Assembly (NCBI GenBank): GCA_052034235.1
Contig: JBPOIT010000007.1
Span: forward strand, 22,234 to 86,233
Source: Candidatus Levyibacteriota bacterium
GTDB lineage: Bacteria > Patescibacteriota > Microgenomatia > Levybacterales > UBA12049
DNA length: 64,000 nt
Direction of reading: 5' to 3'
Below the pieces are notes generated by a model. That model made no database searches. It was given only the letters and a program-made list of their open reading frames with translations, and was not told where the DNA came from. Below, one piece after another: positions 9,008-60,133 of the stretch (its first letter is position 1; every line of letters begins with the position of its first letter). The position numbers were made by a program, and so were the translations under genes.

Positions 9008-10156
9008 ATGTTAATTCGTCCTCAATCTACAAATTTCGCAAAAATCCGAGTCATTGGTATCGGTGGTGGAGGTAGTAATGCGATTGGTTCTATGATTTCT
9101 CATGGTTCAATTGGTGGTGTTGATTTTGTCTCCATAAATACCGATGCGCAGGCACTGCTTCTCAATAAAGCTGAAACAAAAGTTCAAATAGGTGAGACTC
9201 ATACAAAAGGACTTGGAAGCGGTGGCGATCCTGAAATCGGTAAACAAGCAGCCGAGGAATCAGAAGAAAAAATCAAACATATGCTTGAAGGTTCTGACAT
9301 GGTTTTCTTAACAGCTGGTATGGGCGGCGGAACCGGAACTGGAGCCACTCCAGTTGTCGCTAAAATAGCCAAGGACGTCGGTGCACTCACTGTTGCTGTT
9401 GTTACCAAACCTTTCACTTTTGAAGGTACAAGGCGAATGGTCGCAGCTGAAGAAGGAATCGAAAACCTCAAAGATAAAGTAGATACACTTATTGTAATCC
9501 CAAATCAGAGAATTCTTGATGTCGTTGACCGCAAATTATCCCTGCTTGATGCATTTAAAGTTGCAGATTCAATCCTCACCCAGGGCGTTCAGGGAATTTC
9601 AGAAATCATTACCCAACCAGGTCTTATCAATGTCGATTTCGCCGATGTTCGCGCGATCATGTCAAATGCAGGATCCGCTCTTATGGGTATTGGCTCAGGG
9701 GTCGGCGAAAATCGAGCCCAGACAGCTGCCAGATCAGCAGTTTCCAGTCCACTACTTGAAATCAGTATGGACGGTGCAAGAGGAGTGCTTTTTAACATTG
9801 TCGGTGGTGCAGACCTTACGATGACAGAAGTTGATGAAGCAGCCAAGATCATTACCAGTGCAGCAGATCCAGATGCCAACATCATCTTTGGTGCGACCAT
9901 CGATGAAACCATGCACGACCAAATCCGCATCACCATCGTAGCAACAGGTTTTGATCAAGCCAAACAGCGCCTGCAGCAGTTTGTGATCAACAACGAAAAA
10001 GAAGAAGAAATACAACAAGCAACATCCCCAACAGACATAAACATCGTCCCGCCATCTGCACCACAAATGCAGCAGCCACAACAAGACGATCAAAAAGACA
10101 AAAAAAACACCGAAGACGAATGGGACATCCCCGCATTTCTAAGACAGAGGAATTGA
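9008..10156 (+). CDS. ftsZ: cell division GTPase FtsZ
   Basis: Tubulin signature GGGTGTGA ([14 protein letters not shown]), NAIGSMI and TDAQAL motifs; conserved C-terminal peptide [10 protein letters not shown]-stop. Confidence 0.95.
10127..10148 (+). repeat. ftsZ 3'-end core repeat, copy 1 (native end of ftsZ)
   Basis: atccccgcatttctaagacaga is identical to 11245-11266 and near-identical to 63629-63649. Confidence 0.8.
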
Positions 10157-10203
10157 GTACTATTTTTCATCTATGCCAATATTGTATTCAAATAAAAGTT
10201 GTT

Positions 10204-11091
10204 TCAGATAGTAGCTGGAAGCAAAATGGAAAAGGTTCTGTTTTCACCCATATCTTTCATATTCCATCCTACTTGATTATACTTGTTAAATTCGTCCGTT
10301 CCACTTCTGTTAAAATCGGGTTCTCTTGCTCCATTTATAAGATCAACTAACTCATAGAATTTTTTTGCAGACAATGAAGTGTCATTATGTGCAGGAAATA
10401 CTAATTTTAAATGTCCAATAGACGCAGCTAATTTGTGAACTGAAGGTAAAAACTTTTCATAGTCCGACTCTTTCATGTGTAGGTAGAGTGGTCCCACATA
10501 TAGTGTATCGCCGGTAAATAAATAGCCCGCTTTTTCAAGGTAAAAACTAGAACTGCCCGGCGTGTGGCCAGGAGTGCTTATGACTCTTAATTTATCATTA
10601 CCTAAGTCAATTACATCTCCATCATGAAAAACCTGGAATTCCAATATTCCTGGAACCTCGAAATTTTCTGCTGTGTAAGAAGTGGGAATATCGATATCAA
10701 TAAAATACTCCGAGCTTAATCCAGGCATTTCTCCAGGTTTCCATCCTAAAGATAATCTTGATACTTCGGAGGGTTCATCATTTACTCTCACGTTTGGAAG
10801 GTCAGATGCACCCCCGATATGGTCCCAGTGAGTATGTGTAATTAAAGTTGTTAATTTCCTATTTTGGTTACGTTTGAGGAGCGGTATTGTGGCGCGTATA
10901 TCAGCTAGCCCCATTCCTGAATCTACAAGAATGTCCTGAGCGTTTCCATGTATTAAGTAAGATACAACATCTTGGTCATGATGTGGCTCTCTTATTGCCC
11001 AGACATTCTCTGCTATTTGAGTTGAATGAAACCATTTTTCGGTTTCAAATGGAAATCGACTTTCTTTTTGACGCAAAATTTCACAAGCCAT
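10204..11091 (-). CDS. MBL-fold metallo-hydrolase
   Basis: HxHxDH motif (LITHTHWDHIGGA) and downstream His/Asp ligands; 295 aa. Confidence 0.7.
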   Translation of the reverse strand: MACEILRQKESRFPFETEKWFHSTQIAENVWAIREPHHDQDVVSYLIHGNAQDILVDSGMGLADIRATIPLLKRNQNRKLTTLITHTHWDHIGGASDLPNVRVNDEPSEVSRLSLGWKPGEMPGLSSEYFIDIDIPTSYTAENFEVPGILEFQVFHDGDVIDLGNDKLRVISTPGHTPGSSSFYLEKAGYLFTGDTLYVGPLYLHMKESDYEKFLPSVHKLAASIGHLKLVFPAHNDTSLSAKKFYELVDLINGAREPDFNRSGTDEFNKYNQVGWNMKDMGENRTFSILLPATI

Positions 11092-11234
11092 ACTTCATCA
11101 TAAGTAGATAATACCATTTATACCAACTGACTGTTGATTTTTCAACATACTATTGTTAAATTCATTCCAGGACAAATAGGAATAGCTTTTATTAAAAGGT
11201 GCTTATTAGAATAAATTGAAGCTAAACCGGGAGA

Positions 11235-11266
11235 TGACTTAAAAATCCCCGCATTTCTAAGACAGA
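11235..11266 (+). repeat. ftsZ 3'-end repeat, copy 2 (putative attL of prophage; encodes ...DDLKIPAFLRQKN-stop)
   Basis: gacttaaaaatccccgcatttctaagacaga. 22 nt match copy 1 exactly, and the gacttaRaaatccccgcatt portion matches copy 3. A 13-codon orphan reading frame ends in a stop. Confidence 0.75.
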
Positions 11267-11304
11267 AAAATTAAAGCTAAATAGCTCATACAGCTAAACA
11301 AGAG

Positions 11305-11329
11305 AAGCGCCCACGAGGCGCTTTTTTCT
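11305..11329 (+). terminator. rho-independent terminator downstream of ftsZ-end copy 2
   Basis: GCGCC-cacga-GGCGC hairpin followed by TTTTTTCTT. Confidence 0.6.
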
Positions 11330-11533
11330 TGGCTTTCAAAGTACGGTTACATATTAACGGATAAGGTTAATAACCGTCAAGCGTATGAGCAAACAAAAAA
11401 CTGATCGAAATCAAGAAATCTACAAAAAGCATAAGCAAGGTAAATCTACTTATGCCCTCTCATTTGAGTATCAGATCACTCAACCTGCAATCTTCAAGAT
11501 TATCAAAAGGGAAGAAAAGAAGGAGGCAAAACT

Positions 11534-12148
11534 ATGACCGACTTTGCTCAACCCCAACCATTTGTAAGTTCCAGAGTCAAAAGACTGAAAAGGAGAGCTT
11601 TTATGAGAAAAATCTATCCAATACTCCTATTTTTAGCAATTCTTCTTATTATTGCTTTTCTCTTTAATCACAAAGGAGAGATTGTTAGCTCAGTTTCTAA
11701 TGTAAAAGTAGAAGCTGTACACGCTCAAGAAACTGCTTCAGCTTCGGCTACTCCTGTAATTATTGTTGAAGAAGATAAAAGAATTGCTCTTCTCGAAGAC
11801 TTTTTGACTAAAAAAGATTCTCCTCTTGCTTCGTATTCTAAGTACTTTATTGAGACTGCAGATAAATATGGTTTGGATTGGACATTAATGCCTGCAATCT
11901 CAGGAATTGAGTCAAATTTCGGAAAAAGAATGCCTGAAGGATCAAATAATCCTTTTGGGCTTGGAGGCGGAAAACTGATGTCATTTCCGGCATTATATGA
12001 CTCTATAGAGTACGAGGGAAAGCTCCTGTCCCAACATTACAAGTTAGCAGCCAACCACGCCATCGGATCTATTTACTGCCCAACGACTGAATGTAATCAG
12101 AATTGGGCTTTTATTGTTACAAATTTCTCGGAGGAGATATTGAACTAA
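11534..12148 (+). CDS. membrane-anchored lysozyme-like/transglycosylase-like protein (putative)
   Basis: GGAGG RBS 8 nt upstream; N-terminal TM; C-terminal ISGIESNFGKRMPEGSNNPFGLGGG resembles the SLT/lysozyme-like catalytic region. Confidence 0.4.
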   Translation: MTDFAQPQPFVSSRVKRLKRRAFMRKIYPILLFLAILLIIAFLFNHKGEIVSSVSNVKVEAVHAQETASASATPVIIVEEDKRIALLEDFLTKKDSPLASYSKYFIETADKYGLDWTLMPAISGIESNFGKRMPEGSNNPFGLGGGKLMSFPALYDSIEYEGKLLSQHYKLAANHAIGSIYCPTTECNQNWAFIVTNFSEEILN

Positions 12149-19074: not shown

Positions 19075-19109
19075 ATGTATAAGTATTCTCCATTTCGTCA
19101 ATAGAATTG
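19075..19109 (+). promoter_or_regulatory. conserved late intergenic motif ATGTATAAG-N14-TCAATAGAATTG (copy 1, before portal)
   Basis: One of 7 near-identical copies. Like the others it lies just after the upstream stop codon, here 6 nt before the portal ATG. Confidence 0.5.
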
Positions 19110-19115
19110 TTGGGT

Positions 19116-21080
19116 ATGGGATTATTGGATAGATTTAGACAAAAGCAAACCGCCATCAACACTTCAATTTTTTCTGTCCTTTTTGGTAGGGAAGCTCCAA
19201 ACATGAAGGGACCGGAATTCTTAGGAGCATATAAAGGTTGGGTATACTCCTGTGTTAATGCGATAGCTGAAGAAGTTTCGACAATTGAACTTCAGTTACA
19301 ACGTCTTACCTCTGATGGATGGGTTGAAATTCCTGAGCATTTAGCGCTTTCAACTCTTGCTGATGTAAATCCCTTTATGTCTTCTTCAGATCTGCTTATT
19401 GCAACACAATCATTTTTAGAGCTTGAAGGAAACGCTTTTTGGTATTTACCACGAGGATCTGTAACTAGAAAGCCTGCTGAGATATGGCTTCTTGATCCAA
19501 CAAGAACGTATGTGGTTAAGTCTGCAACCGAGTTTATTGGCGGATACGTATATAAAAACGAAAAAGGTGAGGATGTTCCTTTTAAGCGAGAAGAAATAAT
19601 CCATTTCAAACGATTCAATCCACAGAATAAATATCGTGGTATGGGTACGGTTCAAGCTGCAGCAATGGCGATTGACATAGATACCTATTCTGCAACTTGG
19701 AATAGGAATTTCTTTTTCAACTCCGCCATGCCTTCCGCAACTCTTGAAACAGCCGGAACATTAACAGCAGAACAATATAACAGAGTCAAGGCTGAATGGG
19801 ATTCCAGATATAAAGGTGTTGATAATGCTCATAAATTGGCAATTTTACAAGGAGGGCTTCATTTCAATCCAATTTCTCTCTCTCAAAAAGATATGGAGTT
19901 TTTGGAGCAAAGAAAGATGTCCAGAGATGAAATATTGGGAATCTTTAGAGTACCGAAAACTATTTTAGGTATTAGTGATGATGTAAACAGAGCAAATGCT
20001 GAAGCGACAGAGTATGTCTTTTCAAAACGTGTCATTAAGACCCGAATGGAATTTATTGTTGATCGGCTTAATGAGTTTTATATTGAAATGTTTGGTGAAG
20101 ACCAAAAGAAGCTCAGATTCACCTATACAGATCCGGTTCCGAAAAATAGAGAGTTGGTATTGCAAGCAAATGAAACAGGAATTAGAGCTGGTTATTTAAC
20201 AATCAATGAAGTTCGAGAACAAGAAGGGAAACAACCGGTAAGCGGTGGAGATGAAATATATTTGCCTCTCAATCTTACTCCTATTGGATCGGTCCAGGAA
20301 GATTCACAAAATAGTCAAAAGAAAGTTCAAAAAGTTATATCACTGGTAAAAAGTACAGATGCTGACCGCGTGGAGAAACGAGTGAGATTTATTCAATCAG
20401 AAATCAAAAACAGACAAGGTGATTACAGGGAGACACTGCTTCTTATTAAAAACTTCTTAGTCAGACGAGTAAAACAGGGTAAAAAGGCAGTTAAGAAAGA
20501 TCCAACTGAAGATATTCTCAGGACCGTATTTGATTCATTCGAAGATACTTTTATTCCTCTGACAGGTAAGCTCAATAAAAATGCTTTGGAAGCTGCATTT
20601 CTATTTGGAGGTAAACAAGCACTCTCTCAACTTGAGACTGATGTAAGTTTTGATCTACAAAATCCACGAGCTGATGAATGGCTTAAAACTAACGCCCTCG
20701 ATCATGCTAAATCAATTGTTTCAACTCTAAAAGACGAAGCAAAAACAAGAATACTAGCAGGATTAAAAGAAGGACTTGGATCTGGGGATATAGCTTCAAA
20801 CCTTTCAGACTTTTTTGATTCTCAATCTTCCTGGAGAGCATTACGAATAGCGCGAACTGAGGTGATTGGTGGCTATGCAGAAGGATCAATCGAAGGATAT
20901 AGACAGTCAGGAGTAGTCAGCATGAAGCGTTGGATTACTGCAGAAGATGACAAAGTAGATGATTCGTGTTCTCAGAATGAAGCAGATGGTCCTATTTCTT
21001 TGGGAGCATCTTTTTCAAGTGGTGATGATGCCCCGCCACTTCATCCCAATTGTCGATGTGTAATAGCACCTGAAATTTAA
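19116..21080 (+). CDS. phage portal protein fused to Mu gpF-like minor head/morphogenesis domain
   Basis: N-terminal ~400 aa are portal-like. The C-terminal ~150 aa carry the MuF/SPP1 gp7 signature (RTEVIGGYAEGS...PLHPNCRCVIAP). The ATG at 19116 sits 6 nt after the conserved intergenic motif; the track start 19107 is TTG. Confidence 0.65.
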   Translation: MGLLDRFRQKQTAINTSIFSVLFGREAPNMKGPEFLGAYKGWVYSCVNAIAEEVSTIELQLQRLTSDGWVEIPEHLALSTLADVNPFMSSSDLLIATQSFLELEGNAFWYLPRGSVTRKPAEIWLLDPTRTYVVKSATEFIGGYVYKNEKGEDVPFKREEIIHFKRFNPQNKYRGMGTVQAAAMAIDIDTYSATWNRNFFFNSAMPSATLETAGTLTAEQYNRVKAEWDSRYKGVDNAHKLAILQGGLHFNPISLSQKDMEFLEQRKMSRDEILGIFRVPKTILGISDDVNRANAEATEYVFSKRVIKTRMEFIVDRLNEFYIEMFGEDQKKLRFTYTDPVPKNRELVLQANETGIRAGYLTINEVREQEGKQPVSGGDEIYLPLNLTPIGSVQEDSQNSQKKVQKVISLVKSTDADRVEKRVRFIQSEIKNRQGDYRETLLLIKNFLVRRVKQGKKAVKKDPTEDILRTVFDSFEDTFIPLTGKLNKNALEAAFLFGGKQALSQLETDVSFDLQNPRADEWLKTNALDHAKSIVSTLKDEAKTRILAGLKEGLGSGDIASNLSDFFDSQSSWRALRIARTEVIGGYAEGSIEGYRQSGVVSMKRWITAEDDKVDDSCSQNEADGPISLGASFSSGDDAPPLHPNCRCVIAPEI

Positions 21081-22186: not shown

Positions 22187-23272
22187 ATGGATGCAAATCA
22201 AAAAGTAATGACAATGGATGAGTTTACTAAGTTCTTCTCTGATCTCATGGATCAAAAAATCCGTGATATGGGGCTTGATAAGGTAGATAGAAAGCATGGT
22301 GTCTTTCCTTCAAAAGATGATCCGAATGGTGATGGTTTAGAAAATCTCACCAAGGAAGAGAAAGTTAAGAAGTTTTTGAAAGCCATTATCGACAACGATA
22401 GTGTTACTGCAAAAGCTCTCTCTGAGGGTACATCTGCTGATGGTGGATACCTGGTCCCGAATGAATTTAAGGCGGCGATTATAGCAAAGCGAGATGTCGC
22501 AGCTGTAATTAGGCCACGAGCTACAGTTTTCCCAATGACAAGAGACAAGATGGATGTTCCATCTGAGGGAAACGCAGTAACCCTTTATTGGGCTGCTGAG
22601 AACGCTGCTCTTACCGAATCTAATCCAACATTTGGCAATACAACGCTTAACACTAATAAGCTTACCGGTTTATCAAAAATGAGCCGTGAGTTATTTGGTG
22701 ACAGTGCAGTAAATCTTATGGATTTCTTAGCTGGGCTGTATGGTCGAAAGTTTGCTTTGGAAGAGGATAAGAAGTTCATGACTGGAACGGGTACTGGCGA
22801 ACCGAAAGGTATTCGTCAATACACGCTTACTAACGCTGCACAAGCCGCAGCTAACTTAGCTGCAGATGATCTCGTCAAATTGTTCTATACACTTGGCTCT
22901 CAATATCGAAGTCAATCAACTTGGATACTGCATAACAGCATTATTCGATTGATAAGGTTGCTCAAAGATTCCAATGGTCGCTATTTGTGGACCGATGGAT
23001 TCCAAGATGCACCGGCAACGATTCTGGGAAGACCAGTTGTTGAAGAAAACGATATTCCAACCAATTTGGGTGCTGGAACGAATGAATCTGAAATATTCTT
23101 CGGTGATCTTTCTTACTATCTCATTGGAGATAGGCAGGAGATGACTATTGAATCAACAACCGAGGGTGCTGGAACGTTTGAGAATCATCAGGTTGCTGTA
23201 AAAGTTCTTGAGCGTGTTGATGGACAGCTCGGTCTAACCGATCCATTTGTCAAACTGACAGCAGTGAAATAA
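22187..23272 (+). CDS. phage major capsid protein (HK97 fold)
   Basis: 361 aa directly after protease/scaffold; composition and size typical of HK97-like MCP (GGYLVPNEF..., TGTGTGEPKGI...). Confidence 0.7.
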   Translation: MDANQKVMTMDEFTKFFSDLMDQKIRDMGLDKVDRKHGVFPSKDDPNGDGLENLTKEEKVKKFLKAIIDNDSVTAKALSEGTSADGGYLVPNEFKAAIIAKRDVAAVIRPRATVFPMTRDKMDVPSEGNAVTLYWAAENAALTESNPTFGNTTLNTNKLTGLSKMSRELFGDSAVNLMDFLAGLYGRKFALEEDKKFMTGTGTGEPKGIRQYTLTNAAQAAANLAADDLVKLFYTLGSQYRSQSTWILHNSIIRLIRLLKDSNGRYLWTDGFQDAPATILGRPVVEENDIPTNLGAGTNESEIFFGDLSYYLIGDRQEMTIESTTEGAGTFENHQVAVKVLERVDGQLGLTDPFVKLTAVK

Positions 23273-32180: not shown

Positions 32181-34073
32181 ATGGAAGAAAGAATCCTCGA
32201 AATCGTTTTAAAAGCAAGAGATGAAGCCTCAAAAGAAATTCAGAATGTGGGGAAGGAAGCTGGTGGATTAGCTAATCTCTTAGCCGGATCATTTAAAAAT
32301 GCTGCAATTCTATCTGGTGCGGCTCTAGCGGGTATCGCTGTTGAGGCGGTCCGATCAGTAGGAGCATTTGAAGAATCCCAAGCTGCAGTAGCACAACTTG
32401 AAACAGTATTAAAATCAACCAGAAATGCAGCTGGATTATATAAAGATGACTTAATAGAGCAAGCTTCGGCTCTTGAAAGAGTAACTTCTTATTCGGATGA
32501 AGCAATTATCGGCACTGAAAATTTACTTCTCACATTTACAAATATTAAAGGAGCAATTTTCCAGCAAGCACTTCCAGCAGTTTTAGATATGTCTCAGGCT
32601 CTAGGACAAGATTTAAAGTCCTCCTCTATTCAGTTAGGTAAAGCACTAAACGATCCTATTCAGGGTATTACAGCGCTTCGAAGAGTCGGAGTTTCTTTTA
32701 CTGATTCGCAGCAAGACATGATTAAGTCTTTAGTCGAGAGCGGAAAAACAATTGATGCTCAAAAGATGATTTTGAAGGAGATTCAAACTGAGTTCGGAGG
32801 AAGTGCCGAGGCAGCAGGCAAAACTTTTGCTGGATCTGTAACAAGACTTAAGAATCAAATTAATAACCTCGAAGAATCACTTGGTGGAATAATTGTTAAT
32901 GCACTTCAACCCTTCATTGATAAAGCTTCTAATGTAGCAACTGTTCTTGTGGAGTTTTTTAACGGTGCAAAAAGCCTCGATGATGTTACCAAATCACTAA
33001 AAGAAAACTTCGGGGGGTTTGGGGAGGTACTCGGAAACATTATTACTTTCTTTGCTACTCATCGAGAAGCAGTTATAGCATTAGCCGGAGCAATCGGTGG
33101 GTTCTTAGCAATAGCTCTCATTGCTGCAGGAGTGGCAATGGCTTCATTTATCGGCCTTTCGCTTCCTGTTATCGGTATCGCAATGTTGATAGGTGCTGCA
33201 GTTGCACTTCTAATTGCAAACTGGGGTAATATTTCCGGCTTCTTTATCAATTTATGGAATAGTATTGTTGCCAAATTCAATGAAGCAAAACAATTTGTGA
33301 TTGATATTTTAACTGCAATCTGGACTGTTGTTGGTCCTATTCTTCAGTCAATTTTTGATACTTTCTCAACGATTTTTAACGCTATTTGGGCAGTCGTTTC
33401 ATATGTATTTAATTTTATCTGGACTCTTATTCAGTTTTACTTCTATATCTATCTGGCAGAGATACAACTTGTACTTGGTCTAATTCAAGCTGTCTGGAAC
33501 GCAATTTGGGGAGCAATAGGACCATACGTTACAGCGATTTGGGAAGGAATTAAAAATATTATTTCCGGAGCAATTAATGGAGTAAAAACGATTATCACCA
33601 GTGTCCTTACTGCAATCAGTCAAATATGGGAAAACTCCTGGAAAGAAAAATACGAGACTGTTGTTTCCTGGTTTACGAAAATTCATAACTATATCTCAGA
33701 TGCAGTAAATAAGGTTAAGGGATTTTTTCAGGACTTGGCAAATAGCATTACAAATATCTTGTCAAACATCCATATTCCCACGCTTCATATAGAAACAGAA
33801 ACAAAAGAAGTAATGGGACAAAAGATTCAAGTTCCTAAGCTCGGTTGGTATGAGCAGGGTGGATTTGTGCCAGAGACAATGCTGGCGGTCTTACACAAAG
33901 GAGAATTTGTTTTATCAAAGAATATGCTTGCAGGTAATCAACCGGCTCCAATTCCAGGCAATTCTTACAGTACTCCTATTTCAATTGGTCCTGTATATGT
34001 TTCTGATTTAGGAGACGTTGATACATTAGCCCAGAGATTAGCTTTCTTTATGCAAACTAGCGGAAATCTATGA
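32181..34073 (+). CDS. tail tape measure protein
   Basis: 630 aa, helical N-terminal half, central hydrophobic/TM-like block (AIGGFLAIALIAAGVAMASFIGLSLPVIGIAMLIGAAVALLIA); position after the chaperone pair. Confidence 0.7.
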   Translation: MEERILEIVLKARDEASKEIQNVGKEAGGLANLLAGSFKNAAILSGAALAGIAVEAVRSVGAFEESQAAVAQLETVLKSTRNAAGLYKDDLIEQASALERVTSYSDEAIIGTENLLLTFTNIKGAIFQQALPAVLDMSQALGQDLKSSSIQLGKALNDPIQGITALRRVGVSFTDSQQDMIKSLVESGKTIDAQKMILKEIQTEFGGSAEAAGKTFAGSVTRLKNQINNLEESLGGIIVNALQPFIDKASNVATVLVEFFNGAKSLDDVTKSLKENFGGFGEVLGNIITFFATHREAVIALAGAIGGFLAIALIAAGVAMASFIGLSLPVIGIAMLIGAAVALLIANWGNISGFFINLWNSIVAKFNEAKQFVIDILTAIWTVVGPILQSIFDTFSTIFNAIWAVVSYVFNFIWTLIQFYFYIYLAEIQLVLGLIQAVWNAIWGAIGPYVTAIWEGIKNIISGAINGVKTIITSVLTAISQIWENSWKEKYETVVSWFTKIHNYISDAVNKVKGFFQDLANSITNILSNIHIPTLHIETETKEVMGQKIQVPKLGWYEQGGFVPETMLAVLHKGEFVLSKNMLAGNQPAPIPGNSYSTPISIGPVYVSDLGDVDTLAQRLAFFMQTSGNL

Positions 34074-40373: not shown

Positions 40374-40632
40374 AGAGTATAATTGCTAGAAGAAGAACTA
40401 TAAATAAAATTGTTCCTACTACCCATATTGTACTCTTTTTGGAGCCTTTTCTTACATCGACAATTATTGGATAATTGAATGGTTGTTTATCTTCTTTTGT
40501 AGTAAATCTCATCATAATTAATTCTATATCATTTTAGGATTGTTTTCTTTTGTGTATTCGTCTGTAATTTGATCCTATATGCGCTATAATAATAGTGTTA
40601 ATAACCTTATGGGCGAAGTAGGTGATAATTCT

Positions 40633-42837
40633 ATGACTGTAAGAGTTGAAGGAGCTGGTATCAGTGATCATCCTGGGGTAGAGCATTCCGCCCCTGTTTT
40701 TCGTGCTCTTAGAAGAGACCAAGATAGACAAGCTGAAATACTTGGTGGTTTTTCTCCGGACCAACAACGAGATATAAGATATAAACAAAAAATACTCACT
40801 TCACTCGCTTCTTTTATAGGAAAGGATTTTAGCATCCCCGTTAAACTGAATGAGCCAGGACAAGGCTGGCATTGGAACTTCCAAGACAACGAAATCAAAG
40901 TAGACCCACAAGATTTAGTAGAAAAGCCACTGGATTATTTAAGATTTGTTACTTCTCATGAAGGTACTCATAGAAGAATATCCAGAGCAGGCGATATTCC
41001 TCAGGAGGTTTGGAGACAACCTGGATTTTCTTTTATGGCAAATGCTATTGAAGATCCAAGAGTAAATAACTTTCTAGCTGATGCATATCCTAAGTCCAGG
41101 GAACAAATGAAGCTTGCCTATGAAATGGATGCTCAATTTGAAGCTCAAGCTAAGAAAGATGCAAAAGATCAGTTAGGATTTCAGCCAAGATTTGTAACAG
41201 CTGGCTTTGAATATATAAAGCAGTGGTTTAGAAGCACACAAGGTCAACCTGTAGAGCTAACTGACGACTTAGCTCCTGAAGTAAGAGAAGTTGTAAAGAA
41301 AACCTTGGAGTCTGCAAGAGATGCATGGCTCAGATACCCGTCAAAGCAAGAAGCAGATCAAGGCGAGGGAATAATAAAAAGATACTCACAGGTGTCTTAC
41401 GAAATTCAAAGAGATGAAGTATGGCCAGAATTTAAGAAGTTGGTAGATCAAGACATGCAAGACCAAGAAACGCAAGAGTTAATCCAACAAATGATGCAAG
41501 GGCAATCCGGTGAGGGTGAAGGCGAAGGACAAAGTGGTCAAGGTATGCCGCAAGACCTAAAAGATAAATTGACACCAGAGCAACAGGGAGAATTAGAGCA
41601 AGCAATGCAACAGGCAGCACAAAAAGGGCAACCTCAGCCTGGCGAGGGACAACCTCAAGCTGGAGATGGTCAGCCAGGGCAAGGAAAAAGAACCGCTGTT
41701 GACTTAGATTCTTTATCACCTGAATTAAGACAAAAATTAAAAGAGCATATTGATAGCAAACCCCAACCCACGCAACAGCAGTTAGAAGAAATGGCTAGGC
41801 AAGCACTTAAAGAATTAGAGGATATGATAAATGAACAATTGCAAGGTAAGTTATCGGATAATCCGGATAAAAAAGCGGAGAGAGAAGCAGCACAAGCTCA
41901 AGCAAAACCTGCAGGAGAAGCTGCTCAGGGTGATAAAAAACCAACTGAAGAAGGAGAGCCTAGCGATAAGCCCGCCACTCCATCTGACTATGAAGGATCA
42001 GATGATTTCAGAAAATTTAAAGACCAATTAGAGCAGGTCATGCAAAAAGACGAAAGCGTATATGAGCAAAACAGAAGAGAAGTTTTACCTGTTATCGATG
42101 CTCTGGAGGGTGATTTAAGAGAGTTGTTCGTGGCACGAAGAGCCAATAAGTGGCACAGTGGTTTCAGAACGGGTAAAAGGATAGATATTAAGAAAAGAAT
42201 GCAGGAGAAAGCCTTGGGTGTCTCTCCTATTGAAAGTAAAGCTTGGCAAAAAAGAGAGGTTCCTCAGGAAAAAGATTATGCAATTACTCTTTTAGTTGAT
42301 CTTTCTGGTTCAATGAGAGGACAAAAGATTTCTGAAACCTTTAAAGGTGCGGTTGCTCTAGCCGAAGTATTAAATAGATTATCGATAAACACGGAAATAT
42401 TAGGATTTAATGACCGACTTTATGAATATCAGGCATATGGACAAGACATGTCGCAAGAAATTAGAGATCGAATGGGAACAATGCCACGGGAGGTTAACAC
42501 CGAAAGAGCTTCATATAATGACGATGGGTGGGCTTTAGAAGAAGCCTCTGAAAGATTAGCCAGACAAAAAGCAACCGAAAAATTCTTATTTGTGTTATCT
42601 GATGGTGTACCAGAGCCATCATCTGCGCACTCTGGTCCCAGGTATGAGTTAGGAGCTGCAGTTAGAAGGATTATGGAAGGATCAGATCAAAAATTAATTG
42701 GTTTAGGAATTGGTCAAGGAACTGAGCATGTCAGTAGATTTTACCCCAATAGTATTGCTAATATAAATGTAGGAGAAATGCCAGAAAAGCTGGCAGATGT
42801 AATTCGAGAAGCAATTGCTAATTACGATACCTTTTAG
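40633..42837 (+). CDS. DUF2201-like protein: N-terminal HExxH metallopeptidase-like domain + Q/G/E-rich linker + C-terminal von Willebrand A (VWA) domain; partner of MoxR-type ATPase
   Basis: HEGTHRR (HExxH) near the N-terminus; VWA MIDAS DxSxS (LLVDLSGSMRGQK) and VLSDG near the C-terminus. AGGTGA RBS before ATG 40633; the track start 40579 is further upstream. Confidence 0.6.
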   Translation: MTVRVEGAGISDHPGVEHSAPVFRALRRDQDRQAEILGGFSPDQQRDIRYKQKILTSLASFIGKDFSIPVKLNEPGQGWHWNFQDNEIKVDPQDLVEKPLDYLRFVTSHEGTHRRISRAGDIPQEVWRQPGFSFMANAIEDPRVNNFLADAYPKSREQMKLAYEMDAQFEAQAKKDAKDQLGFQPRFVTAGFEYIKQWFRSTQGQPVELTDDLAPEVREVVKKTLESARDAWLRYPSKQEADQGEGIIKRYSQVSYEIQRDEVWPEFKKLVDQDMQDQETQELIQQMMQGQSGEGEGEGQSGQGMPQDLKDKLTPEQQGELEQAMQQAAQKGQPQPGEGQPQAGDGQPGQGKRTAVDLDSLSPELRQKLKEHIDSKPQPTQQQLEEMARQALKELEDMINEQLQGKLSDNPDKKAEREAAQAQAKPAGEAAQGDKKPTEEGEPSDKPATPSDYEGSDDFRKFKDQLEQVMQKDESVYEQNRREVLPVIDALEGDLRELFVARRANKWHSGFRTGKRIDIKKRMQEKALGVSPIESKAWQKREVPQEKDYAITLLVDLSGSMRGQKISETFKGAVALAEVLNRLSINTEILGFNDRLYEYQAYGQDMSQEIRDRMGTMPREVNTERASYNDDGWALEEASERLARQKATEKFLFVLSDGVPEPSSAHSGPRYELGAAVRRIMEGSDQKLIGLGIGQGTEHVSRFYPNSIANINVGEMPEKLADVIREAIANYDTF

Positions 42838-42848
42838 TAAGATAAAAA

Positions 42849-43265
42849 TTGATGATTATGAATAGCAAATTTACAGACTTTCTAAAACACTCACTCTCTC
42901 AAAAAGAAATTTCTCTGGCTATTGCAAAAGACGATCAGGAGCTAAATAGCTTCCAAGAGACTCTTCATCAAGCTGGATTTAAGAAGGCTTATGATATTCC
43001 CGAAATCTTAAATGACATGAAGGAAAACTCAAAGGTCTACTACTTTATTGATGAGAAATTCCCCAAAGCGCTGTATGACTTAATAATTCAATACCCCACT
43101 GGTCAAGTAGAGACTTTTGATGTTCGAACAATGAAATCTACAGTGGTTACGCCGTCTTATAGCAAATCAGCTATAATACTGCTTGTCACAAAGGATACTT
43201 TAGCTTATTTTCAGACTAAAGGCTATTCAATATTAGAAAAAGTTGGAATAGCATATCAAAGTTAA
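42849..43265 (+). CDS. hypothetical protein between VWA and AAA genes
   Basis: 138-aa ORF, tightly spaced with both neighbours. Confidence 0.3.
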   Translation: MMIMNSKFTDFLKHSLSQKEISLAIAKDDQELNSFQETLHQAGFKKAYDIPEILNDMKENSKVYYFIDEKFPKALYDLIIQYPTGQVETFDVRTMKSTVVTPSYSKSAIILLVTKDTLAYFQTKGYSILEKVGIAYQS

Positions 43266-43268
43266 AAT

Positions 43269-45269
43269 ATGGAAGATCCGAATGTAGACTCAGCTATGAT
43301 AGAAAGACAAGGACCGATTGACCGAAAGACTGCTCCTATTGTGGAAACTCCTGATACAGTTTCCTATTTGGGCGTGCGTTTAGAGAAGTCATCGGCTCCT
43401 CCTGGATTGTACGTTCCCAGAAAAGAACAATATGCTGATTATATCAATGATAGATTTTCCCTAGACCTTCAAAAACAACTAGCAGTAAGCTTTCTTCAGG
43501 GTGATCCAATTCTTGTGGAAGGTGGTACTAGTATCGGTAAAACAACTACTGTAAGAAAGATGGCAGCAGATCTTGGGTGGGAAGTTCACTACGCCAACCT
43601 TAATGGAGCAACGGATGTAGAAGATTTAATGGGTAGATACATCCCTAATCCAGATAAACATGCTCCTGAAGATCCTGAATATGTATTTGCTGATGGAAAA
43701 GTCACCAGTGGTCTAAGACAAGAAGATGGGAAAATTAAAGTTATTATTTTGGATGAGTTTAATGCTGCAGCTCCTAATATTTTAATTCGTTTACATGAGG
43801 TATTGGATGCTGTAGGCAGAGGGGAAAATGTTGTTTTATCAGAGGATGCTTCAGAAGTTGTTCCTGTTGATAAAGCTAAGACCAAAGTAGTAGCACTCAT
43901 GAATCCTCCTGGAAAAGGTTATTTTGGAAGAGAGCCGCTAGATCCGGCACAGCTAAGACGTTGGGTATACACAAAAGCCCCTACAGATTTACCAGACGAA
44001 ACGTTCAGCCATGCTACAGACGCTTTATTTACGCTGGCTCCTCAAATGCAGGATGTGCCGGAGGATGCATATTTATTAAATCGAGACTTGGCCTTGCTAC
44101 CAGAGCAATTACAAGAAATACCAGGTATCCACGAAGTACTGGCTAAATATAAGGAATTTCACAAAGGAGCAAAATTGTTGGTCAGAGAAAGAAGAGTTGC
44201 TGCAGATCAACCGCAACCATTTACTTACGATGACAGAATGGAACCTAGAAGAGTGAGAGATTTCGTTTTGTCTTTTTATAATGGAGATGTTAATGACACC
44301 TTCCAAACAGCTCTGCGTTATTACTATGAAAATAAATTAGATTCAGCAGTAGATAAAGCTGCTATGGATGAATTAGTCAGAACAGTCGAATATGTAGAGC
44401 CAATACAAAATGTTTCTTCTCAAAGGCGAGGACTAGAAAGGGACGCTGCTGTCAGACCTGGAGAACCATTAGTAGATATTGTTAGGTCTACCGCTACGGA
44501 GACATCTGAGCTTGGAAGAAGGGAAACTGAAGCATGGCAAAGAGTTTTGGGTACAAGAGTTGAAGTAAAGCCATTGCCTGAATCTGTTACACCAGAAGTA
44601 AGAAGAAATCTTGAACGACTTGGGTTTGATTTACGGTATGTTCCCAAAATTGAGCTTGCTGATCGTGATGCTATTAGGCGTAAAGGTGTTGACCAGTACT
44701 TAAAAGATTTACAACGTCAATATCCAAATTGGAAGCCATATGAATCTCTTGGTGATAGAGAGCAATCCGACCATAGAATTCCTCGAAACTTGAGGGAATG
44801 GTATTGGGAGTTAGTAAAAGATGGAAAAGTGGATATGCCTGTGCTTCCTGGACAGTGGTTAGCTGTTGAAACAGTCGATAAGCCATCATATGGGAATAAA
44901 TATGCAAGAACTGCTTTTGCTGAAAAGTTAGGATTTAGAGATGATAGGTTTAATGTCTCTTGGAATGATGCAAATAACGCTATAGAAAGGCAAAAGAGAG
45001 CAGTTTTAGGTGAAGTCGGGCTTACTGGAAGGTCTGCAGATATTCGATTACTAGAGACTCCTGAATGGAATTTATTAGGAAATCGTGAGGGTTGGGGTGC
45101 AACTGATACTTATGAGTGGACAAATACAGAATATCGTGAGTCCGGTGGTCCGCGCCGTCTCGTGGTTGGTGGCTCCGACTACGGTGGTGCGGCGAACGTC
45201 TACTGGGCTCATCCTGACTACTCGTACGACAACGTGGGGTTCCGTGCTGCGGTAGTCGTGGGTTCTTGA
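43269..45269 (+). CDS. DGR target: AAA_5 (MoxR/dynein-related) ATPase with C-terminal FGE-sulfatase/C-type-lectin-fold variable domain
   Basis: Walker A ILVEGGTSIGKTTT, Walker B VIILDEFNAA; no signal peptide. The C-terminal WTNTEYRESGGPRRLVVGGSDYGGAANVYWAHPDYSYDNVGFRAAVV matches the FGE-sulfatase fold signature (RGGSW...GFRcA). The last 122 nt form the VR of the downstream DGR. Confidence 0.75.
   Translation: MEDPNVDSAMIERQGPIDRKTAPIVETPDTVSYLGVRLEKSSAPPGLYVPRKEQYADYINDRFSLDLQKQLAVSFLQGDPILVEGGTSIGKTTTVRKMAADLGWEVHYANLNGATDVEDLMGRYIPNPDKHAPEDPEYVFADGKVTSGLRQEDGKIKVIILDEFNAAAPNILIRLHEVLDAVGRGENVVLSEDASEVVPVDKAKTKVVALMNPPGKGYFGREPLDPAQLRRWVYTKAPTDLPDETFSHATDALFTLAPQMQDVPEDAYLLNRDLALLPEQLQEIPGIHEVLAKYKEFHKGAKLLVRERRVAADQPQPFTYDDRMEPRRVRDFVLSFYNGDVNDTFQTALRYYYENKLDSAVDKAAMDELVRTVEYVEPIQNVSSQRRGLERDAAVRPGEPLVDIVRSTATETSELGRRETEAWQRVLGTRVEVKPLPESVTPEVRRNLERLGFDLRYVPKIELADRDAIRRKGVDQYLKDLQRQYPNWKPYESLGDREQSDHRIPRNLREWYWELVKDGKVDMPVLPGQWLAVETVDKPSYGNKYARTAFAEKLGFRDDRFNVSWNDANNAIERQKRAVLGEVGLTGRSADIRLLETPEWNLLGNREGWGATDTYEWTNTEYRESGGPRRLVVGGSDYGGAANVYWAHPDYSYDNVGFRAAVVVGS
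45135..45256 (+). repeat. DGR variable repeat (VR) at the 3' end of the target gene
   Basis: 122 nt aligning with TR at 45723-45844. The 10 differences (G/A, CG/AA, GG/AA, T/A x4, C/A) all fall on TR adenines. The identical GC-rich 3' end (ggggttccgtgctgcggtagt) is IMH-like. Confidence 0.9.
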
Positions 45270-45722: not shown

Positions 45723-45844
45723 CGTGAGTCCGGTGATCCGAACCGTCTCGTGGTTGGTAACTCCGACAACGGTGGTGCGGCGAACGTCAACTGGGATCAT
45801 CCTGACAACTCGAACGACAACGTGGGGTTCCGTGCTGCGGTAGT
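45723..45844 (+). repeat. DGR template repeat (TR)
   Basis: Adenine-rich at the variable codons (AAC/AAT). Differs from VR only at adenines. Lies in a 380-nt untranslated spacer upstream of avd/RT. The overlapping 144-aa ORF 45579-46013 is rejected. Confidence 0.9.
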
Positions 45845-45894: not shown

Positions 45895-46272
45895 TTAGGT
45901 GGAAGATGACCTTATCCATCCACCTAACATTTTACCAATTTCTTGAAGGGAGGATTCTAATTCAAGATATTTTTTATTATCAAGTATTTTTAGATCTTTA
46001 CATAACCTTATGAGTACTTTTGTTAAATCGAGCTTTGTACTTGCTCTTTGCAAGACTGGTATTTTTTCTTGTTTAGGTAGGCTCGCAGCGATTGTAACTG
46101 ATTCTAGAAAATCGAGAAGAGCATTTTCGCATCTCTGGCCAAGTGTATATTTATCTTTTTTAGGAAAGTTAACAAGGTAACCATAAAAGGTTTTGTATGT
46201 TTCGTAAGTTTTTTGAAAAATGGGAAAATCTAAAGTTTTATTAATTGATTGAAAATCATGAGAGTCTGGCAT
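45895..46272 (-). CDS. avd: accessory variability determinant (Avd; four-helix-bundle / 23S rRNA-IVS family)
   Basis: 125 aa. FPKKDKYTLGQRCENALLDF... and C-terminal EIGKMLGGWIRSS match the four-helix-bundle family signature (FPKxEKYxLxsQlrRA...EIGKMLNGLIKSL). Head-to-head with the RT gene, overlapping it by 24 nt. Confidence 0.55.
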   Translation of the reverse strand: MPDSHDFQSINKTLDFPIFQKTYETYKTFYGYLVNFPKKDKYTLGQRCENALLDFLESVTIAASLPKQEKIPVLQRASTKLDLTKVLIRLCKDLKILDNKKYLELESSLQEIGKMLGGWIRSSST

Positions 46273-47295
46273 AACATTTACTCAAATCTTATCACATTGG
46301 AGAGCGTTTTTACAGCGTGGGATGAGTTTATTCAAGGCAAAAAGAAAAAAGATGACGTAATGGCTTTTAGAAGGTTTCTCGAGGATAATTTATTCGAACT
46401 TCATCAAAGCTTAAAAGCTAAGACATACCAACATGGTGGGTACAAATCTTTTTATATTAGAGATCCAAAAGTGCGCCATATTTCAAAAGCTTGTGTCAGA
46501 GATAGAGTCGTCCATCATCTCGTCAGTAATGTCTTAGAAAGAATTTTTGACCCTACATTTTATGTGCATTCCTATTCCTGCCGTAAAAACAAAGGAACTC
46601 ATAAAGCAATCGAATCATTTGTTAAGCTTGCCAGAAAAGCTAGCAAAAATAATACGTCACCTCTTTTTGTTCTTAAATGTGACGTAAAGAAGTTTTTTGC
46701 CAGCGTCGATCATGAAATATTATATAGACTACTGGATAGGAGAATTTTTGATGAAGATTTTTTGTGGTTATTGAGAGAAATAATTAATAGCTTTAGTATA
46801 GATGCTCAGGAAAGGGGTATGCCTATAGGGAATCTCACTTCTCAATTTTTCGCTAATATTTACCTGGATCCTTTTGACCGTTTCATTAAGCATGATCTTA
46901 AAATTGAATATTATATTCGCTATGCTGATGACTTCATAATCTTGTCAGACAATAAGGAATATTTAGAGAAGTTAATTGTCAATCTTGAACACTTTTTGGA
47001 ATTTGAGCTAAAGCTATTCCTTCACCCTCACAAAATATCAATTCGAGATTATTATTTAGGAATAGATTTTTTAGGCTATATCGTTTTTCCTAATTTTGTC
47101 TTACCCAGAACCAAAACGAAGAAGCGGCTTTTTAGGAAGATTCATAAAAAGGTGGAACTTTATAAGATGAGTAAAATTACAGCAGAATCCCTTAGCCAGT
47201 CAATTCAATCCTACCTTGGTTATCTTACTCATGCCAATGCGTACAAACTCTCTCAACAGCTGAAGAATCAAATTATATTTTGGCTAAACGACTAA
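46249..47295 (+). CDS. DGR-type reverse transcriptase
   Basis: RT motifs including YADDFII (motif 5) and the DGR-specific MPIGNLTSQFFANIYL (I/LGxxxSQ in place of QGxxxSP). 348 aa with no maturase or endonuclease domains. Confidence 0.9.
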   Translation: MKIMRVWHNIYSNLITLESVFTAWDEFIQGKKKKDDVMAFRRFLEDNLFELHQSLKAKTYQHGGYKSFYIRDPKVRHISKACVRDRVVHHLVSNVLERIFDPTFYVHSYSCRKNKGTHKAIESFVKLARKASKNNTSPLFVLKCDVKKFFASVDHEILYRLLDRRIFDEDFLWLLREIINSFSIDAQERGMPIGNLTSQFFANIYLDPFDRFIKHDLKIEYYIRYADDFIILSDNKEYLEKLIVNLEHFLEFELKLFLHPHKISIRDYYLGIDFLGYIVFPNFVLPRTKTKKRLFRKIHKKVELYKMSKITAESLSQSIQSYLGYLTHANAYKLSQQLKNQIIFWLND

Positions 47296-48114: not shown

Positions 48115-50388
48115 ATGAAATTATCAGACAATGAAAAACGAGACATTATTAAGTATCTTGAATCTGGGAAACCCCTTCCAGATAAATACAGATTCCTCCT
48201 CTTCGATGATGACCATGAAGTAGAACTGGTTTGGAATGGTAAAACAAACGAAATCTCCAATATTGTACTACCTTTTCAGACGATAGAACATATTGATGAA
48301 CCAAGAAGCGATGAATCAATCCGGATGCAGAAATCCCTTTTTGATATGTCTGGCCGTCAGATTGAAGGTTGGACAAATAAGCTCATTTGGGGCGATAACA
48401 AACTAATTCTGTCCTCACTCAAAAATGGCCCTCTTAGAAAAGAAATAGAAGCTCAAGGCGGTATAAAACTTATTTATATTGATCCTCCTTTTGATGTAGG
48501 CGCAGACTTTTCTATTGATGTTCAAATTGGTGAGGAAGAATTTATAAAGAAACCATCAGTAATTGAAGAAGTTGCATTTAGAGATACATGGGGTAAAGGT
48601 GTAGATAGTTTTATTGCAATGATTTATGAACGATTGCAATTAATGCACGATCTTTTAGCTGAAGATGGAAGTATTTATATTCACTGCGATGGTCGCGTGA
48701 GCGCATATCTTAAGCTTTGTCTTGATGAAATATTTGGAGCAGACAATAAAATGGCAGAGATAATTTGGAAAAGAAGTTCTGCTCATAATGATAGTAATTC
48801 TTATGGCACGATACATGACACAATTCATTTTTATACTAAAACAGATTTGAATATTTGGAATCCCACCTACGTTGAATACGACCAAGATTATATTGACCAA
48901 TATTATAGATATAAAGATCCTGATGGAAGAAAATGGTTGTCTCGCGACTGTAGTGCTCCTGGAGGGCGAGGGCCGAGATATGAATGGAATGGACATATTC
49001 GAAACTGGCGATACACCAAAGTTAAGATGCAAGAGCTTCATGATGCTGGGAAATTATTTTATACATCAAATGGTATACCTCGCTTTAAGCAGTATATGGA
49101 TGAGATGCCAGGTGTGCCCTCACAAAGTTTATGGATAGACAAAAGTGTTCAAGCAATTAATTCGTGGCATCAAGAAAATGAAGCTTACCCCACACAAAAA
49201 CCAGAAGGACTTTTAGAGCGAATTATAAAAGCGAGTAGTAATGAAAATGATATTGTGGCTGACTTTTTTGTTGGATCGGGAACAACATTGGCTGTCGCAG
49301 AAAAATTAGGTAGAAAATGGATAGGTTCTGATTTAGGAAGATTTTCAATGCACACTACCCGCAAAAGAATGATTAAAGTTCAAAGAGAGCTTAAGAAAGC
49401 AGGTAAAGATTTCAGAGCTTTTGAGATCCTAAATTTAGGAAAATATGAACGGGAACAGTTTATTGGGAAAAACGACAATCTAAGAGAAGAAGACCGACAA
49501 TTGCAGCAGCAAAAGAAAGAACAAGAATTTATAAAATTGATTCTATCAGCTTACAAAGCAGAGGCTGTTGATTCATTTTTAACTATGGTTGGTAAAAAAA
49601 GAGATCGTCTTGTAGCAATCGGACCAATAAATTTTCCTGTTACTGCAGAATTCTTACATCAAGTCGTTACAGAGTGTATAGAGAAGAATATCACTAAAGT
49701 AGATGTGCTTGGGTTTGATTGGGAAATGGGTCTTGAAGTAGATCAATTTAAGAATCAAGGAGTTGATCTTCAGCTTAGAGTAATTCCAAGAGAAGTATTT
49801 GATAAGCGAGCAGTTGAAAAAGGACAAGTTAAATTTTATGAGGTAGCTTTTATTGAAGTTAAGCCCATTATAAAAAAGAATACTATCGCGGTTCAGTTAA
49901 TGGATTTTAGCGTCTTTTATAACCAAGATGATTCAGGTGAAATCGAAGAAAAATTAAAATCAGGTGGTTCTAAAGTTGTTGTCGAGAACGGTCAAGTGAT
50001 TAAGCTTAGTAAAGATAAAGGATCTGAGATTGTTAATCGAGAAGTATTAACAACTAAATGGACAGATTGGGTTGATTATTGGGCTGTTGATTTTAATTTT
50101 GAAAGTAAGAAAGAGTTCATTAGGAAAGCTAAAGATTTCGATATATCTCAACCAAAACTTGATGGTACCGAAGATCCAACACAAACAAAATTCCCTGAGT
50201 ATGAAGAATTATGGACTGGTAGTTATATTTTTGAAAATGAATGGCAATCATTTAGATCTCAAAAAGATAGAAATTTGGAATTAACTACAGTATTTAAAGA
50301 AGTCTCAAGAGGAACTTTAAAGATTGCAGTTAAAGTCGTTGATATTTTTGGTAACGATACAACAAAGGTGATTGAAGTTACAGTTTAA
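48115..50388 (+). CDS. mod: Type III restriction-modification system methyltransferase (Mod; N6-adenine/N4-cytosine, beta class)
   Basis: Motif IV LIYIDPPFD precedes motif I FFVGSGTTLAVAEKLGRKWIGSD (beta-class order). 757 aa, followed directly by a DEAH helicase-nuclease. Confidence 0.75.
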   Translation: MKLSDNEKRDIIKYLESGKPLPDKYRFLLFDDDHEVELVWNGKTNEISNIVLPFQTIEHIDEPRSDESIRMQKSLFDMSGRQIEGWTNKLIWGDNKLILSSLKNGPLRKEIEAQGGIKLIYIDPPFDVGADFSIDVQIGEEEFIKKPSVIEEVAFRDTWGKGVDSFIAMIYERLQLMHDLLAEDGSIYIHCDGRVSAYLKLCLDEIFGADNKMAEIIWKRSSAHNDSNSYGTIHDTIHFYTKTDLNIWNPTYVEYDQDYIDQYYRYKDPDGRKWLSRDCSAPGGRGPRYEWNGHIRNWRYTKVKMQELHDAGKLFYTSNGIPRFKQYMDEMPGVPSQSLWIDKSVQAINSWHQENEAYPTQKPEGLLERIIKASSNENDIVADFFVGSGTTLAVAEKLGRKWIGSDLGRFSMHTTRKRMIKVQRELKKAGKDFRAFEILNLGKYEREQFIGKNDNLREEDRQLQQQKKEQEFIKLILSAYKAEAVDSFLTMVGKKRDRLVAIGPINFPVTAEFLHQVVTECIEKNITKVDVLGFDWEMGLEVDQFKNQGVDLQLRVIPREVFDKRAVEKGQVKFYEVAFIEVKPIIKKNTIAVQLMDFSVFYNQDDSGEIEEKLKSGGSKVVVENGQVIKLSKDKGSEIVNREVLTTKWTDWVDYWAVDFNFESKKEFIRKAKDFDISQPKLDGTEDPTQTKFPEYEELWTGSYIFENEWQSFRSQKDRNLELTTVFKEVSRGTLKIAVKVVDIFGNDTTKVIEVTV

Positions 50389-50393
50389 AAATT

Positions 50394-53746: not shown

Positions 53747-53772
53747 AGCTATAAAAAGGAAAGGAAACCCTC

Positions 53773-57702: not shown

Positions 57703-57712
57703 AAATTAATTT

Positions 57713-58552: not shown

Positions 58553-58559
58553 TTATAAA

Positions 58560-60125: not shown

Positions 60126-60133
60126 TACGAAGC

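Follow-up and report, generated by a model that had tools for sequence, protein, structure and literature searches.

A metallo-hydrolase cassette and a prophage in tandem at the 3' end of ftsZ in a Levyibacteriota bacterium

Introduction

How does the 3' end of an essential cell-division gene come to stand three times on one bacterial contig? The question is raised by a stretch of 64,000 nucleotides from contig JBPOIT010000007.1 of a Candidatus Levyibacteriota bacterium, in the following called the window. In this window ftsZ closes the division and cell wall (dcw) cluster, which has the order murA ... mraY, ftsW, murG, ftsQ, ftsA, ftsZ, and the DNA encoding the C-terminal peptide of FtsZ recurs twice downstream. 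A sequence-only reading had proposed that one prophage integrated into ftsZ, gave rise to all three copies and could couple the prophage state to the C-terminal sequence of FtsZ. Comparisons with contigs of the same species and with relatives of the integrase lead to a modified view, to which we assign a probability of about 0.88: the ftsZ tail is the bacterial attachment site (attB) for a Xer-like family of tyrosine integrases, which are found on phages and small islands of the Microgenomates group, and the window holds a small cassette and a prophage in tandem.

The host belongs to the Microgenomates group of Patescibacteria, as placed by its FtsZ homologues; the closest genome by FtsZ is a metagenome-assembled genome of the Levyibacteriota with 78% identity. 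Patescibacteria, or the candidate phyla radiation (CPR), remain uncultured, and their temperate phages are hardly known.

Copies of the ftsZ tail and occupancy of the site

The features that bear on the question are listed by window position. Contigs and loci used for comparison are given as L numbers, and MBL stands for metallo-β-lactamase.

9008-10156, plus strand: ftsZ (NCBIfam TIGR00065, 443.6 bits, cut-off 295.2)
10120-10143, plus strand: copy 1, left attachment site (attL) of the MBL cassette, ATGGGACAT-CCCCGC-ATTTCTAAG
10144-11237, no strand: body of the integrase-less cassette, absent from L085 and present without phage in L084, L086, L088, L089, L091 and L165
10204-11091, minus strand: MBL-fold metallo-hydrolase of 295 aa, the sole cassette gene (Pfam Lactamase_B, 2.1e-23)
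11238-11274, plus strand: copy 2, hybrid site, CTTAAAAAT-CCCCGC-ATTTCTAAG then acagaaaaattaa
11256-63628, no strand: prophage (Pfam and PHROGs; clean 52-kb insertion or deletion relative to L084 and similar contigs)
11301-11333, plus strand: intrinsic terminator supplied by the phage, just after the replacement ftsZ tail (terminator scan, 11-pair stem and T run)
62349-63371, minus strand: Xer-like two-domain tyrosine integrase of 340 aa (Pfam Phage_integrase, PF00589, 4.5e-33, and SAM_1)
63622-63658, plus strand: copy 3, right attachment site (attR) of the phage, CTTAGAAAT-CCCCGC-ATTCATCAG then acagcgtaattaa
63702-64000, minus strand: host Peptidase_M23 gene, 3' portion (complete product 1013 aa), which natively lies next to ftsZ on its downstream side (gene calls of L084 and L085, collinearity)

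The 22-mer ATCCCCGCATTTCTAAGACAGA occurs exactly twice, at 10127-10148 and at 11245-11266, with 0 matches expected (100 shuffles), and copy 2 translates as ...GDDLKIPAFLRQKN-stop. The third copy, gacttagaaATCCCCGCATTcatcagacagcgtaattaa at 63620-63658, is diverged and translates as DLEIPAFIRQRN-stop. All three encode the FtsZ C-terminal peptide followed by a stop codon, and copies 2 and 3 have the flank gacttaRaa in common to the left of the core; on these points the sequence-only reading is borne out. It had placed copy 3 at 63620-63657, which is right as to location and falls short at the end, where the stop codon finishes at 63658. An 11-bp core, ATCCCCGCATT, is found at 10127, 11245 and 63629, always on the same strand, as direct repeats that bound elements.

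An exact look-up of the FtsA protein yielded ten contigs of the same species from independent assemblies, with flanks of 99.6-99.9% nucleotide identity to the window, and these reveal three states of the locus. An unoccupied genome, the comparison suggested from the outset, is represented by L085 (ENA ERZ3602260). It has an empty attB with a single core, where ftsZ ends ..gggacATCCCCGCATTcctcagacagcgtaattaa and runs directly into the convergent M23-peptidase gene. The second state, a cassette without phage, is seen in L084, L086, L088, L089 and L091, in which ftsZ ends as in copy 1 of the window and is followed by the MBL gene, then gacttaaaaATCCCCGCATTcatcagacagcgtaattaa, then the M23 gene; L165 has the same gene order M23, MBL, ftsZ. 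The third state is that of the window, which equals the cassette-only state plus 52,384 bp, the repeat unit of the prophage from core to core, inserted exactly at the second core. The breakpoints between the states coincide exactly with ATCCCCGCATT, and the empty, cassette-only and lysogen states thus identify the repeats as attachment (att) sites of mobile DNA, as had been supposed.

Two further contigs bear on the lysogenic state. L094, an independent contig, is 100% identical to the window over a stretch that takes in the integrase gene (int), copy 3 and the M23 gene of the host; an exact look-up of the integrase returned only this attR-bearing contig. L093, from the lysogen sample SRR34217540, ends right after the 22-mer (window position 10148), as expected if two continuations exist in that sample.

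Because the same-species contigs show each state, copy 1 can be assigned as attL of the cassette, copy 2 as a hybrid site and copy 3 as attR of the phage. The prophage of the window sits in the orphan stub (attR) of the 1,118-bp MBL cassette and not inside ftsZ, the current 3' end of ftsZ is supplied by the cassette, and the three copies belong to two tandem elements. Both the insertion of the prophage into ftsZ in the window and the origin of the three copies from a single element therefore had to be given up.

The portion of the window ftsZ that derives from the element comprises the final 19-22 nt. Relative to the empty-site allele of L085, the gene has 5 synonymous differences within the final 26 nt, the change of the stop codon from TAA to TGA included. 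Because the cassette-supplied tail is fully synonymous, the protein is unchanged, with 100% amino-acid identity between the occupied and the empty-site FtsZ. FtsZ is hence the same with and without insertions, and the idea of a coupling between prophage state and FtsZ C terminus finds no support here.

An attB of the tRNA type was also considered; it is excluded, because the 64-kb window contains no tRNA or tmRNA genes.

The same phage lineage in a second host

A contig of 54 kb, L158 (Logan SRR21621035), was found by an exact match to the 204-aa product of the second phage gene. It carries ftsW, murG, ftsQ, ftsA and ftsZ followed directly by phage genes, without the MBL cassette. The phage is 94.0% identical to that of the window over 5,905 nt, with the homology beginning exactly at the core. 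The ftsZ::phage junction reads ..gacttctttgacATCCCCGCATTTCTAAGACAGAAAAATTAA and is followed by the same terminator as in the window phage, so that the phage supplies FLRQKN-stop and a terminator to ftsZ. Compared with FLRQRN, the native tail of the window host (not of the L158 host itself), this phage tail differs in one residue, K for R. The earlier proposal that the element carries a replacement 3' end for ftsZ together with a terminator is directly seen here, in a 94%-identical phage fused to ftsZ.

The host of L158 is clearly a different organism from that of the window, and probably of a different genus, because the two share 70.7% identity in FtsZ and 58.5% in FtsA. The contig shows that the phage lineage uses ftsZ itself as its target.

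Architecture of the attachment sites

The origin of each arm could be read from the comparison of flanks. Copy 1, with its spacer at 10129-10134, has a left half-site that belongs to the host ftsZ and a right one that comes from the cassette; on the left its flank matches the empty site of L085 exactly, and on the right it differs from L085 and runs into the cassette. Copy 2 pairs a left arm from the cassette (its P arm) with a right arm from the phage (its P' arm), and the latter encodes ..FLRQKN-stop. Its left flank equals attR of the cassette-only contigs, its right flank equals the ftsZ::phage junction of L158, and the site exactly matches the recombinant predicted from cassette attR and the phage attachment site (attP). 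Copy 3 has a left half-site from the P arm of the phage and, on the right, the native ftsZ tail, displaced and altered by one substitution (L to I), whereupon the right flank continues at 99.5-99.7% identity to the DNA after ftsZ in the empty site of L085. The rho-independent terminator noticed earlier behind copy 2 was recovered by the terminator scan as a hairpin spanning 11301-11327 with a T run.

The phage attP, reconstructed from the P arm of copy 3 and the P' arm of copy 2, reads CTTAGAAAT-CCCCGC-ATTTCTAAG (junction sequence cttgaCTTAGAAATCCCCGCATTTCTAAGacagaaaaattaaagc). It is a 9/9 inverted repeat with a 6-bp spacer, i.e. a perfect 9-6-9 palindrome. The native attB, ATGGGACAT-CCCCGC-ATTCCTCAG, matches this consensus at 5/9 positions on the left and 7/9 on the right, and the cassette attR used by the phage, CTTAAAAAT-CCCCGC-ATTCATCAG, at 8/9 and 6/9, respectively. 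Strand exchange must fall within ATCCCCGCATT, because this is the block of identity common to all sites. Cleavage would most plausibly occur at the edges of CCCCGC, by analogy with the site layout of Xer- and Cre-type recombinases.

The P arm of the phage also opens a mini open reading frame (ORF) of 15 codons, MRLDLEIPAFIRQRN-stop (window 63611-63658), for which no ribosome-binding site is obvious. A function of this ORF is improbable, because its in-frame ATG is shared with the related element L096 and is absent from L095 and L097.

The integrase and its relatives

The integrase gene starts 258 nt from copy 3. The catalytic residues R151, H240, R243, H266 and Y276 (R...HxxR...H...Y) are invariant among four relatives with identities down to 26%. 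The protein consists of a SAM-like core-binding domain and the catalytic domain only, and its nearest models and structures are XerA, XerC and XerD, with 120-123 bits against cut-offs of 220-335. A chromosomal dimer-resolution recombinase of the XerC, XerD or XerA kind was rejected on these scores below cut-off and on the position of the gene at the prophage end. A two-domain Xer-like integrase fits the short and simple att site. Among GenBank phages, no relative of the integrase exceeded 31% identity.

Searches of IMG/VR, JGI metagenomes and GTDB genomes with the integrase found relatives at 45-83% identity. In this small survey all ten relatives with at least 45% identity and readable flanks (L011, L094, L095, L096, L097, L098, L108, L109, L111 and L113) adjoin ftsZ or an FtsZ-tail stub. 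The layout of the window, with int diverging from a stub located ~250 nt upstream, is shared by L095, L096 and L097. In L098, L109, L111, L113 and L011, int lies directly downstream of a real ftsZ on the same strand, and in L098 a non-phage island of ~6 kb (EamA-type transporter, RidA and others) extends between ftsZ and the orphan stub. The spacer varies by subgroup, being CCCCGC or TCCCAC. Several P arms carry an AGCT-centred motif, TTNNAGCTNNAA, at a fixed distance of ~20 nt from the half-site. Its status as a family feature is tentative, because the motif shows no enrichment across the whole window (9 occurrences against 3.4 expected, with 2/100 shuffles reaching 9).

Some of the loci compared are more complex. 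L108 (IMGVR_UViG_3300027835_000014) has direct stubs at 99 and 6015, 5.9 kb apart, which bracket one integrase with 50% identity to that of the window; a second, distant integrase (26%) lies just past the inner stub in the divergent layout of the window type. The arrangement suggests that elements with different integrases stand in tandem at a single site. In L010 (Gottesmanbacteria JAZDOQ010000024.1) ftsZ is followed by three direct copies of IPAFLRQRN-stop, at 7123, 8485 and 10620. The first interval holds a peptide deformylase gene (def) and a hypothetical gene, the second a DNA-alkylation-repair-like and other ORFs, and no integrase was found within 2.5 kb downstream. L010 is a cassette array at the ftsZ tail of another lineage; among the fetched loci there was no empty-site relative of this three-copy array. 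The nearest named relative of the window, L004 (Levyibacteriota JACROF010000004.1), has an inverted orphan stub at 8871 (minus strand), 1.7 kb downstream of the ftsZ core at 7147 (plus strand). The two cores differ (ATACCAGCC versus ATTCCCGCA), and the stub may be the relic of an old rearrangement.

The ends of viral contigs deserve a separate remark. The end of L097 lies inside the core, at gacttagaaATCCCCGC, and the IMG/VR relatives L107, L110 and L112 begin at the integrase start codon or at most 16 nt from it. As contigs break at the att repeat or at the integrase start, att sites of this family are systematically lost from viral contigs. The 22-mer had no exact match in IMG/VR.

The MBL cassette

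The cassette measures 1,118 bp from core to core (10127 to 11245). It is flanked by att sites, one of which (attR) is occupied by the phage, and lacks recombinase and transfer genes. The MBL hydrolase reached no NCBIfam model at or above cut-off. Exact matches to the protein were confined to cassette-only contigs of the species of the window, where the gene lies beside ftsZ. The cassette may be a decayed relative of the elements described here, comparable to a cis-mobilisable element (CIME), which the phage integrase could mobilise.

An integron cassette was considered as a further candidate and rejected: the integrase scores 65 bits against the integron-integrase cut-off of 265 bits, and the boundaries are FtsZ-tail cores, not attC sites.

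Some homologues of the MBL protein carry weak precomputed Pfam hits to PF23023 (Anti-Pycsar Apyc1); the protein of the window did not reach E 0.01 with this model.

Proposed mechanism and alternatives

In the proposed mechanism the target is the DNA encoding the conserved C-terminal peptide ..D-I-P-A-F-L-R.., where two 9-bp half-sites enclose the 6-bp spacer CCCCGC (codons I-P-A) and strand exchange takes place in or beside this spacer. The right arm of attP continues as ..FLRQKN-stop and a terminator. Integration thus swaps the last 6 codons and the stop of ftsZ for the copy of the element, and the native tail, now displaced, ends up at the opposite end as an orphan stub. In the window, the 1,118-bp cassette occupies ftsZ itself, and the 52.4-kb prophage used, or now occupies, the attR stub of the cassette. 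Because copies 1 and 3 are direct repeats with a shared spacer, the integrase could in principle excise cassette and phage together, which we put forward as a hypothesis. The activities of excision, integration and induction are predicted from the genes and sites described.

Several points weigh against this reading. Neither attP nor an excised circular junction was found in IMG/VR or in the contig look-ups. Besides the window, no contig spanning copy 2 was found; an exact look-up of the AAA_24 protein returned only fragments, none of which reached copy 2. The homologues of the MBL hydrolase (51-59% identity) sit in ordinary chromosomal contexts, and their neighbourhoods held no ftsZ or stubs nearby that would mark the cassette as a mobile unit elsewhere. 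The cassette resembles the P arms of the family in its left half-site (8/9) and in an AGCT-centred motif ~20 nt upstream, and since only a half-site and a short motif are common with the phage, its descent from a related element is no more than weakly suggested. Finally, the structure does not reveal which of the two insertions came first.

This last point leads to the alternative that survives best, an unlikely one in our view, in which the phage integrated first into ftsZ, the MBL cassette entered the resulting attL later, and the cassette-only contigs arose by later excision of the phage. The final structure would be the same either way, the phage of L158 does use ftsZ directly, and the right half-site of copy 1 is perfect. 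On the other hand, the cassette-only state is present in at least six contigs from independent samples and the lysogen is rare, and a cassette without its own integrase would need one in trans under both orders. The reverse order alters the history of the locus, not the mechanism.

Quite improbable is a composite phage reaching from copy 1 to copy 3, with the MBL gene as cargo and copy 2 as an internal relic site. Such a composite of 53.5 kb would be excisable by the integrase, given the direct orientation and shared spacer of copies 1 and 3, and would match the model of CIME accretion and cis-mobilisation (PMC7563491). However, the cassette occurs without the phage (L084 and others), the phage occurs without the cassette (L158), and the exact MBL protein is confined to the vicinity of ftsZ in one species. 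A segmental duplication of the host ftsZ 3' end or an assembly artefact, to which the single contig across copy 2 and the break of L093 from the same sample at the repeat might point, is hardly credible, as the repeats are just 11-22 bp long and stand exactly at the boundaries of the insertions and by the start of the integrase gene, the attR junction is independently confirmed by L094 at 100% identity, and the architecture is seen again in unrelated assemblies and in other lineages.

The reading of cassette and prophage as tandem elements at the ftsZ tail can be carried further, though with considerable doubt. The FtsZ tail might be a universal landing pad across genera of the Microgenomates-group CPR, at which integrase-less cargo cassettes accumulate (MBL in the window, def and others in L010) and from which phage integrases pick them up and carry them off by excision between copy 1 and copy 3. 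If true, one phage lineage would lysogenise hosts with 59% FtsA identity because the target peptide is invariant, and the window would have caught the capture of a moron in the act. As a still weaker addition, a free FtsZ C-terminal peptide from the P-arm mini-ORF could interfere with the binding of FtsZ to FtsA.

Content and probable regulation of the prophage

Copies 2 and 3 enclose what looks like a complete prophage of the siphovirus type, with the integrase at copy 3 as first described. The following features were assigned, strand being given where noted.

11385-11537: Mor-like protein of 50 aa
17713-19062: large terminase subunit (TerL)
19107-21080: portal protein
22187-23272: major capsid protein
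32181-34073: tape measure protein
60840-60857: operator-like palindrome upstream of the S24 repressor gene
60897-61484, plus strand: Peptidase_S24 (CI/LexA-like) repressor (Pfam, 4.9e-28)
63390-63407 and 63470-63487: two operator-like palindromes between the integrase start and the att site

A C5 methylase, a prohead protease, tail proteins and a DUF3800 protein are also encoded. The palindrome AGTAAAC-N4-GTTTACT occurs at three sites against 0.5 expected. Judged by their positions, the three palindromes are likely operators of the repressor, which would silence int in the lysogen.

The prophage further contains a textbook diversity-generating retroelement with a variable repeat at 45135-45256 and a template repeat at 45723-45844. 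The variable repeat of 122 nt lies at the 3' end of a gene for a 666-aa AAA_5-domain protein (43269-45269), the template lies 588 nt downstream, and a reverse transcriptase gene follows the template at 46249-47295. At every mismatch between the repeats (10/10) the template has A and the variable copy a different base. At 40579-45269 there is a pair of genes for VWA and AAA_5 proteins. A defence-like cargo block extends over 48115-60823 and comprises an N6/N4 methylase with a ResIII helicase-nuclease, resembling a type III restriction-modification system, as well as a 1309-aa TPR-GreAB-C-PIN protein, an HD-domain protein, a trypsin-like peptidase and an SRAP protein.

Comparison with known systems

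The locus provides a resolved att system, consisting of attB, attL, attR, an inferred attP and natural empty sites. The FtsZ-tail stub is, on the basis of a small survey, a candidate marker for linking CPR phage contigs to their hosts, and the short palindromic site with its small Xer-like integrase might in time be developed into a tool for the genetics of CPR organisms or of their hosts. In the open-access full-text literature, no report was found of ftsZ as attB, of CPR prophages with ftsZ or of the present integrase family.

Temperate phages that integrate by a tyrosine integrase into a housekeeping protein-coding gene, as seen here, are known from icd of Escherichia coli. In that system, as reportedly described by Campbell and colleagues in 1992, the phage carries a substitute 3' end of icd and the gene stays functional. 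The lambdoid phage 21, the prophage e14 and NC-SV have their attachment site within icd (PMC12803456). The replaced segment of icd spans roughly 50 codons, in contrast to 6 codons and the stop of ftsZ. The present system further differs in the Xer-like integrase without an arm-binding domain, the short, perfectly palindromic attP and the uncultured CPR host.

The conjugative elements ICESt1 and ICESt3 target the 3' end of fda, and integrase-less streptococcal CIMEs keep their att sites (PMC7563491). According to that source, which cites Bellanger et al. 2011, an autonomous element integrates into an att site of a CIME and forms a tandem composite (PMC7563491). The window resembles this system in the 3' end of a conserved gene as target and in an integrase-less, att-flanked unit with an autonomous element in one of its att sites. 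The putatively decayed element adjoins the target gene here, whereas the CIMEs of S. salivarius are always farthest from it (PMC7563491). A second difference is that the autonomous partner is a phage and not a conjugative element.

Integrases that target tRNA or tmRNA genes, for example those of the P4 type, belong to elements that duplicate the 3' end of a conserved gene, regenerate the gene and leave a stub, and tandem arrays are common among them. The target is here the tail of a protein-coding gene, conserved at the level of the peptide, which leaves room for synonymous differences in the replacement (5 among the final 26 nt). With Xer recombination at dif, and with XerA, XerH and XerS, the system shares the site layout of two inverted half-sites and a 6-bp spacer. 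It differs from these in the phage-borne gene, the site in ftsZ and a predicted role in integration and excision rather than dimer resolution.

The strategy is thus a classical one, integration at a 3' end with tandem accretion as for the icd, fda and tRNA targets, and because the mechanism is classical the general picture of site-specific integration is unchanged. What appears to be new is the coding region of the FtsZ C-terminal peptide as target, the integrase family, the host clade and the fact that a single phage lineage uses the site in two divergent hosts. With ftsZ, an essential cell-division gene joins the short list of protein-coding 3' ends that are used as attB with exact functional replacement.

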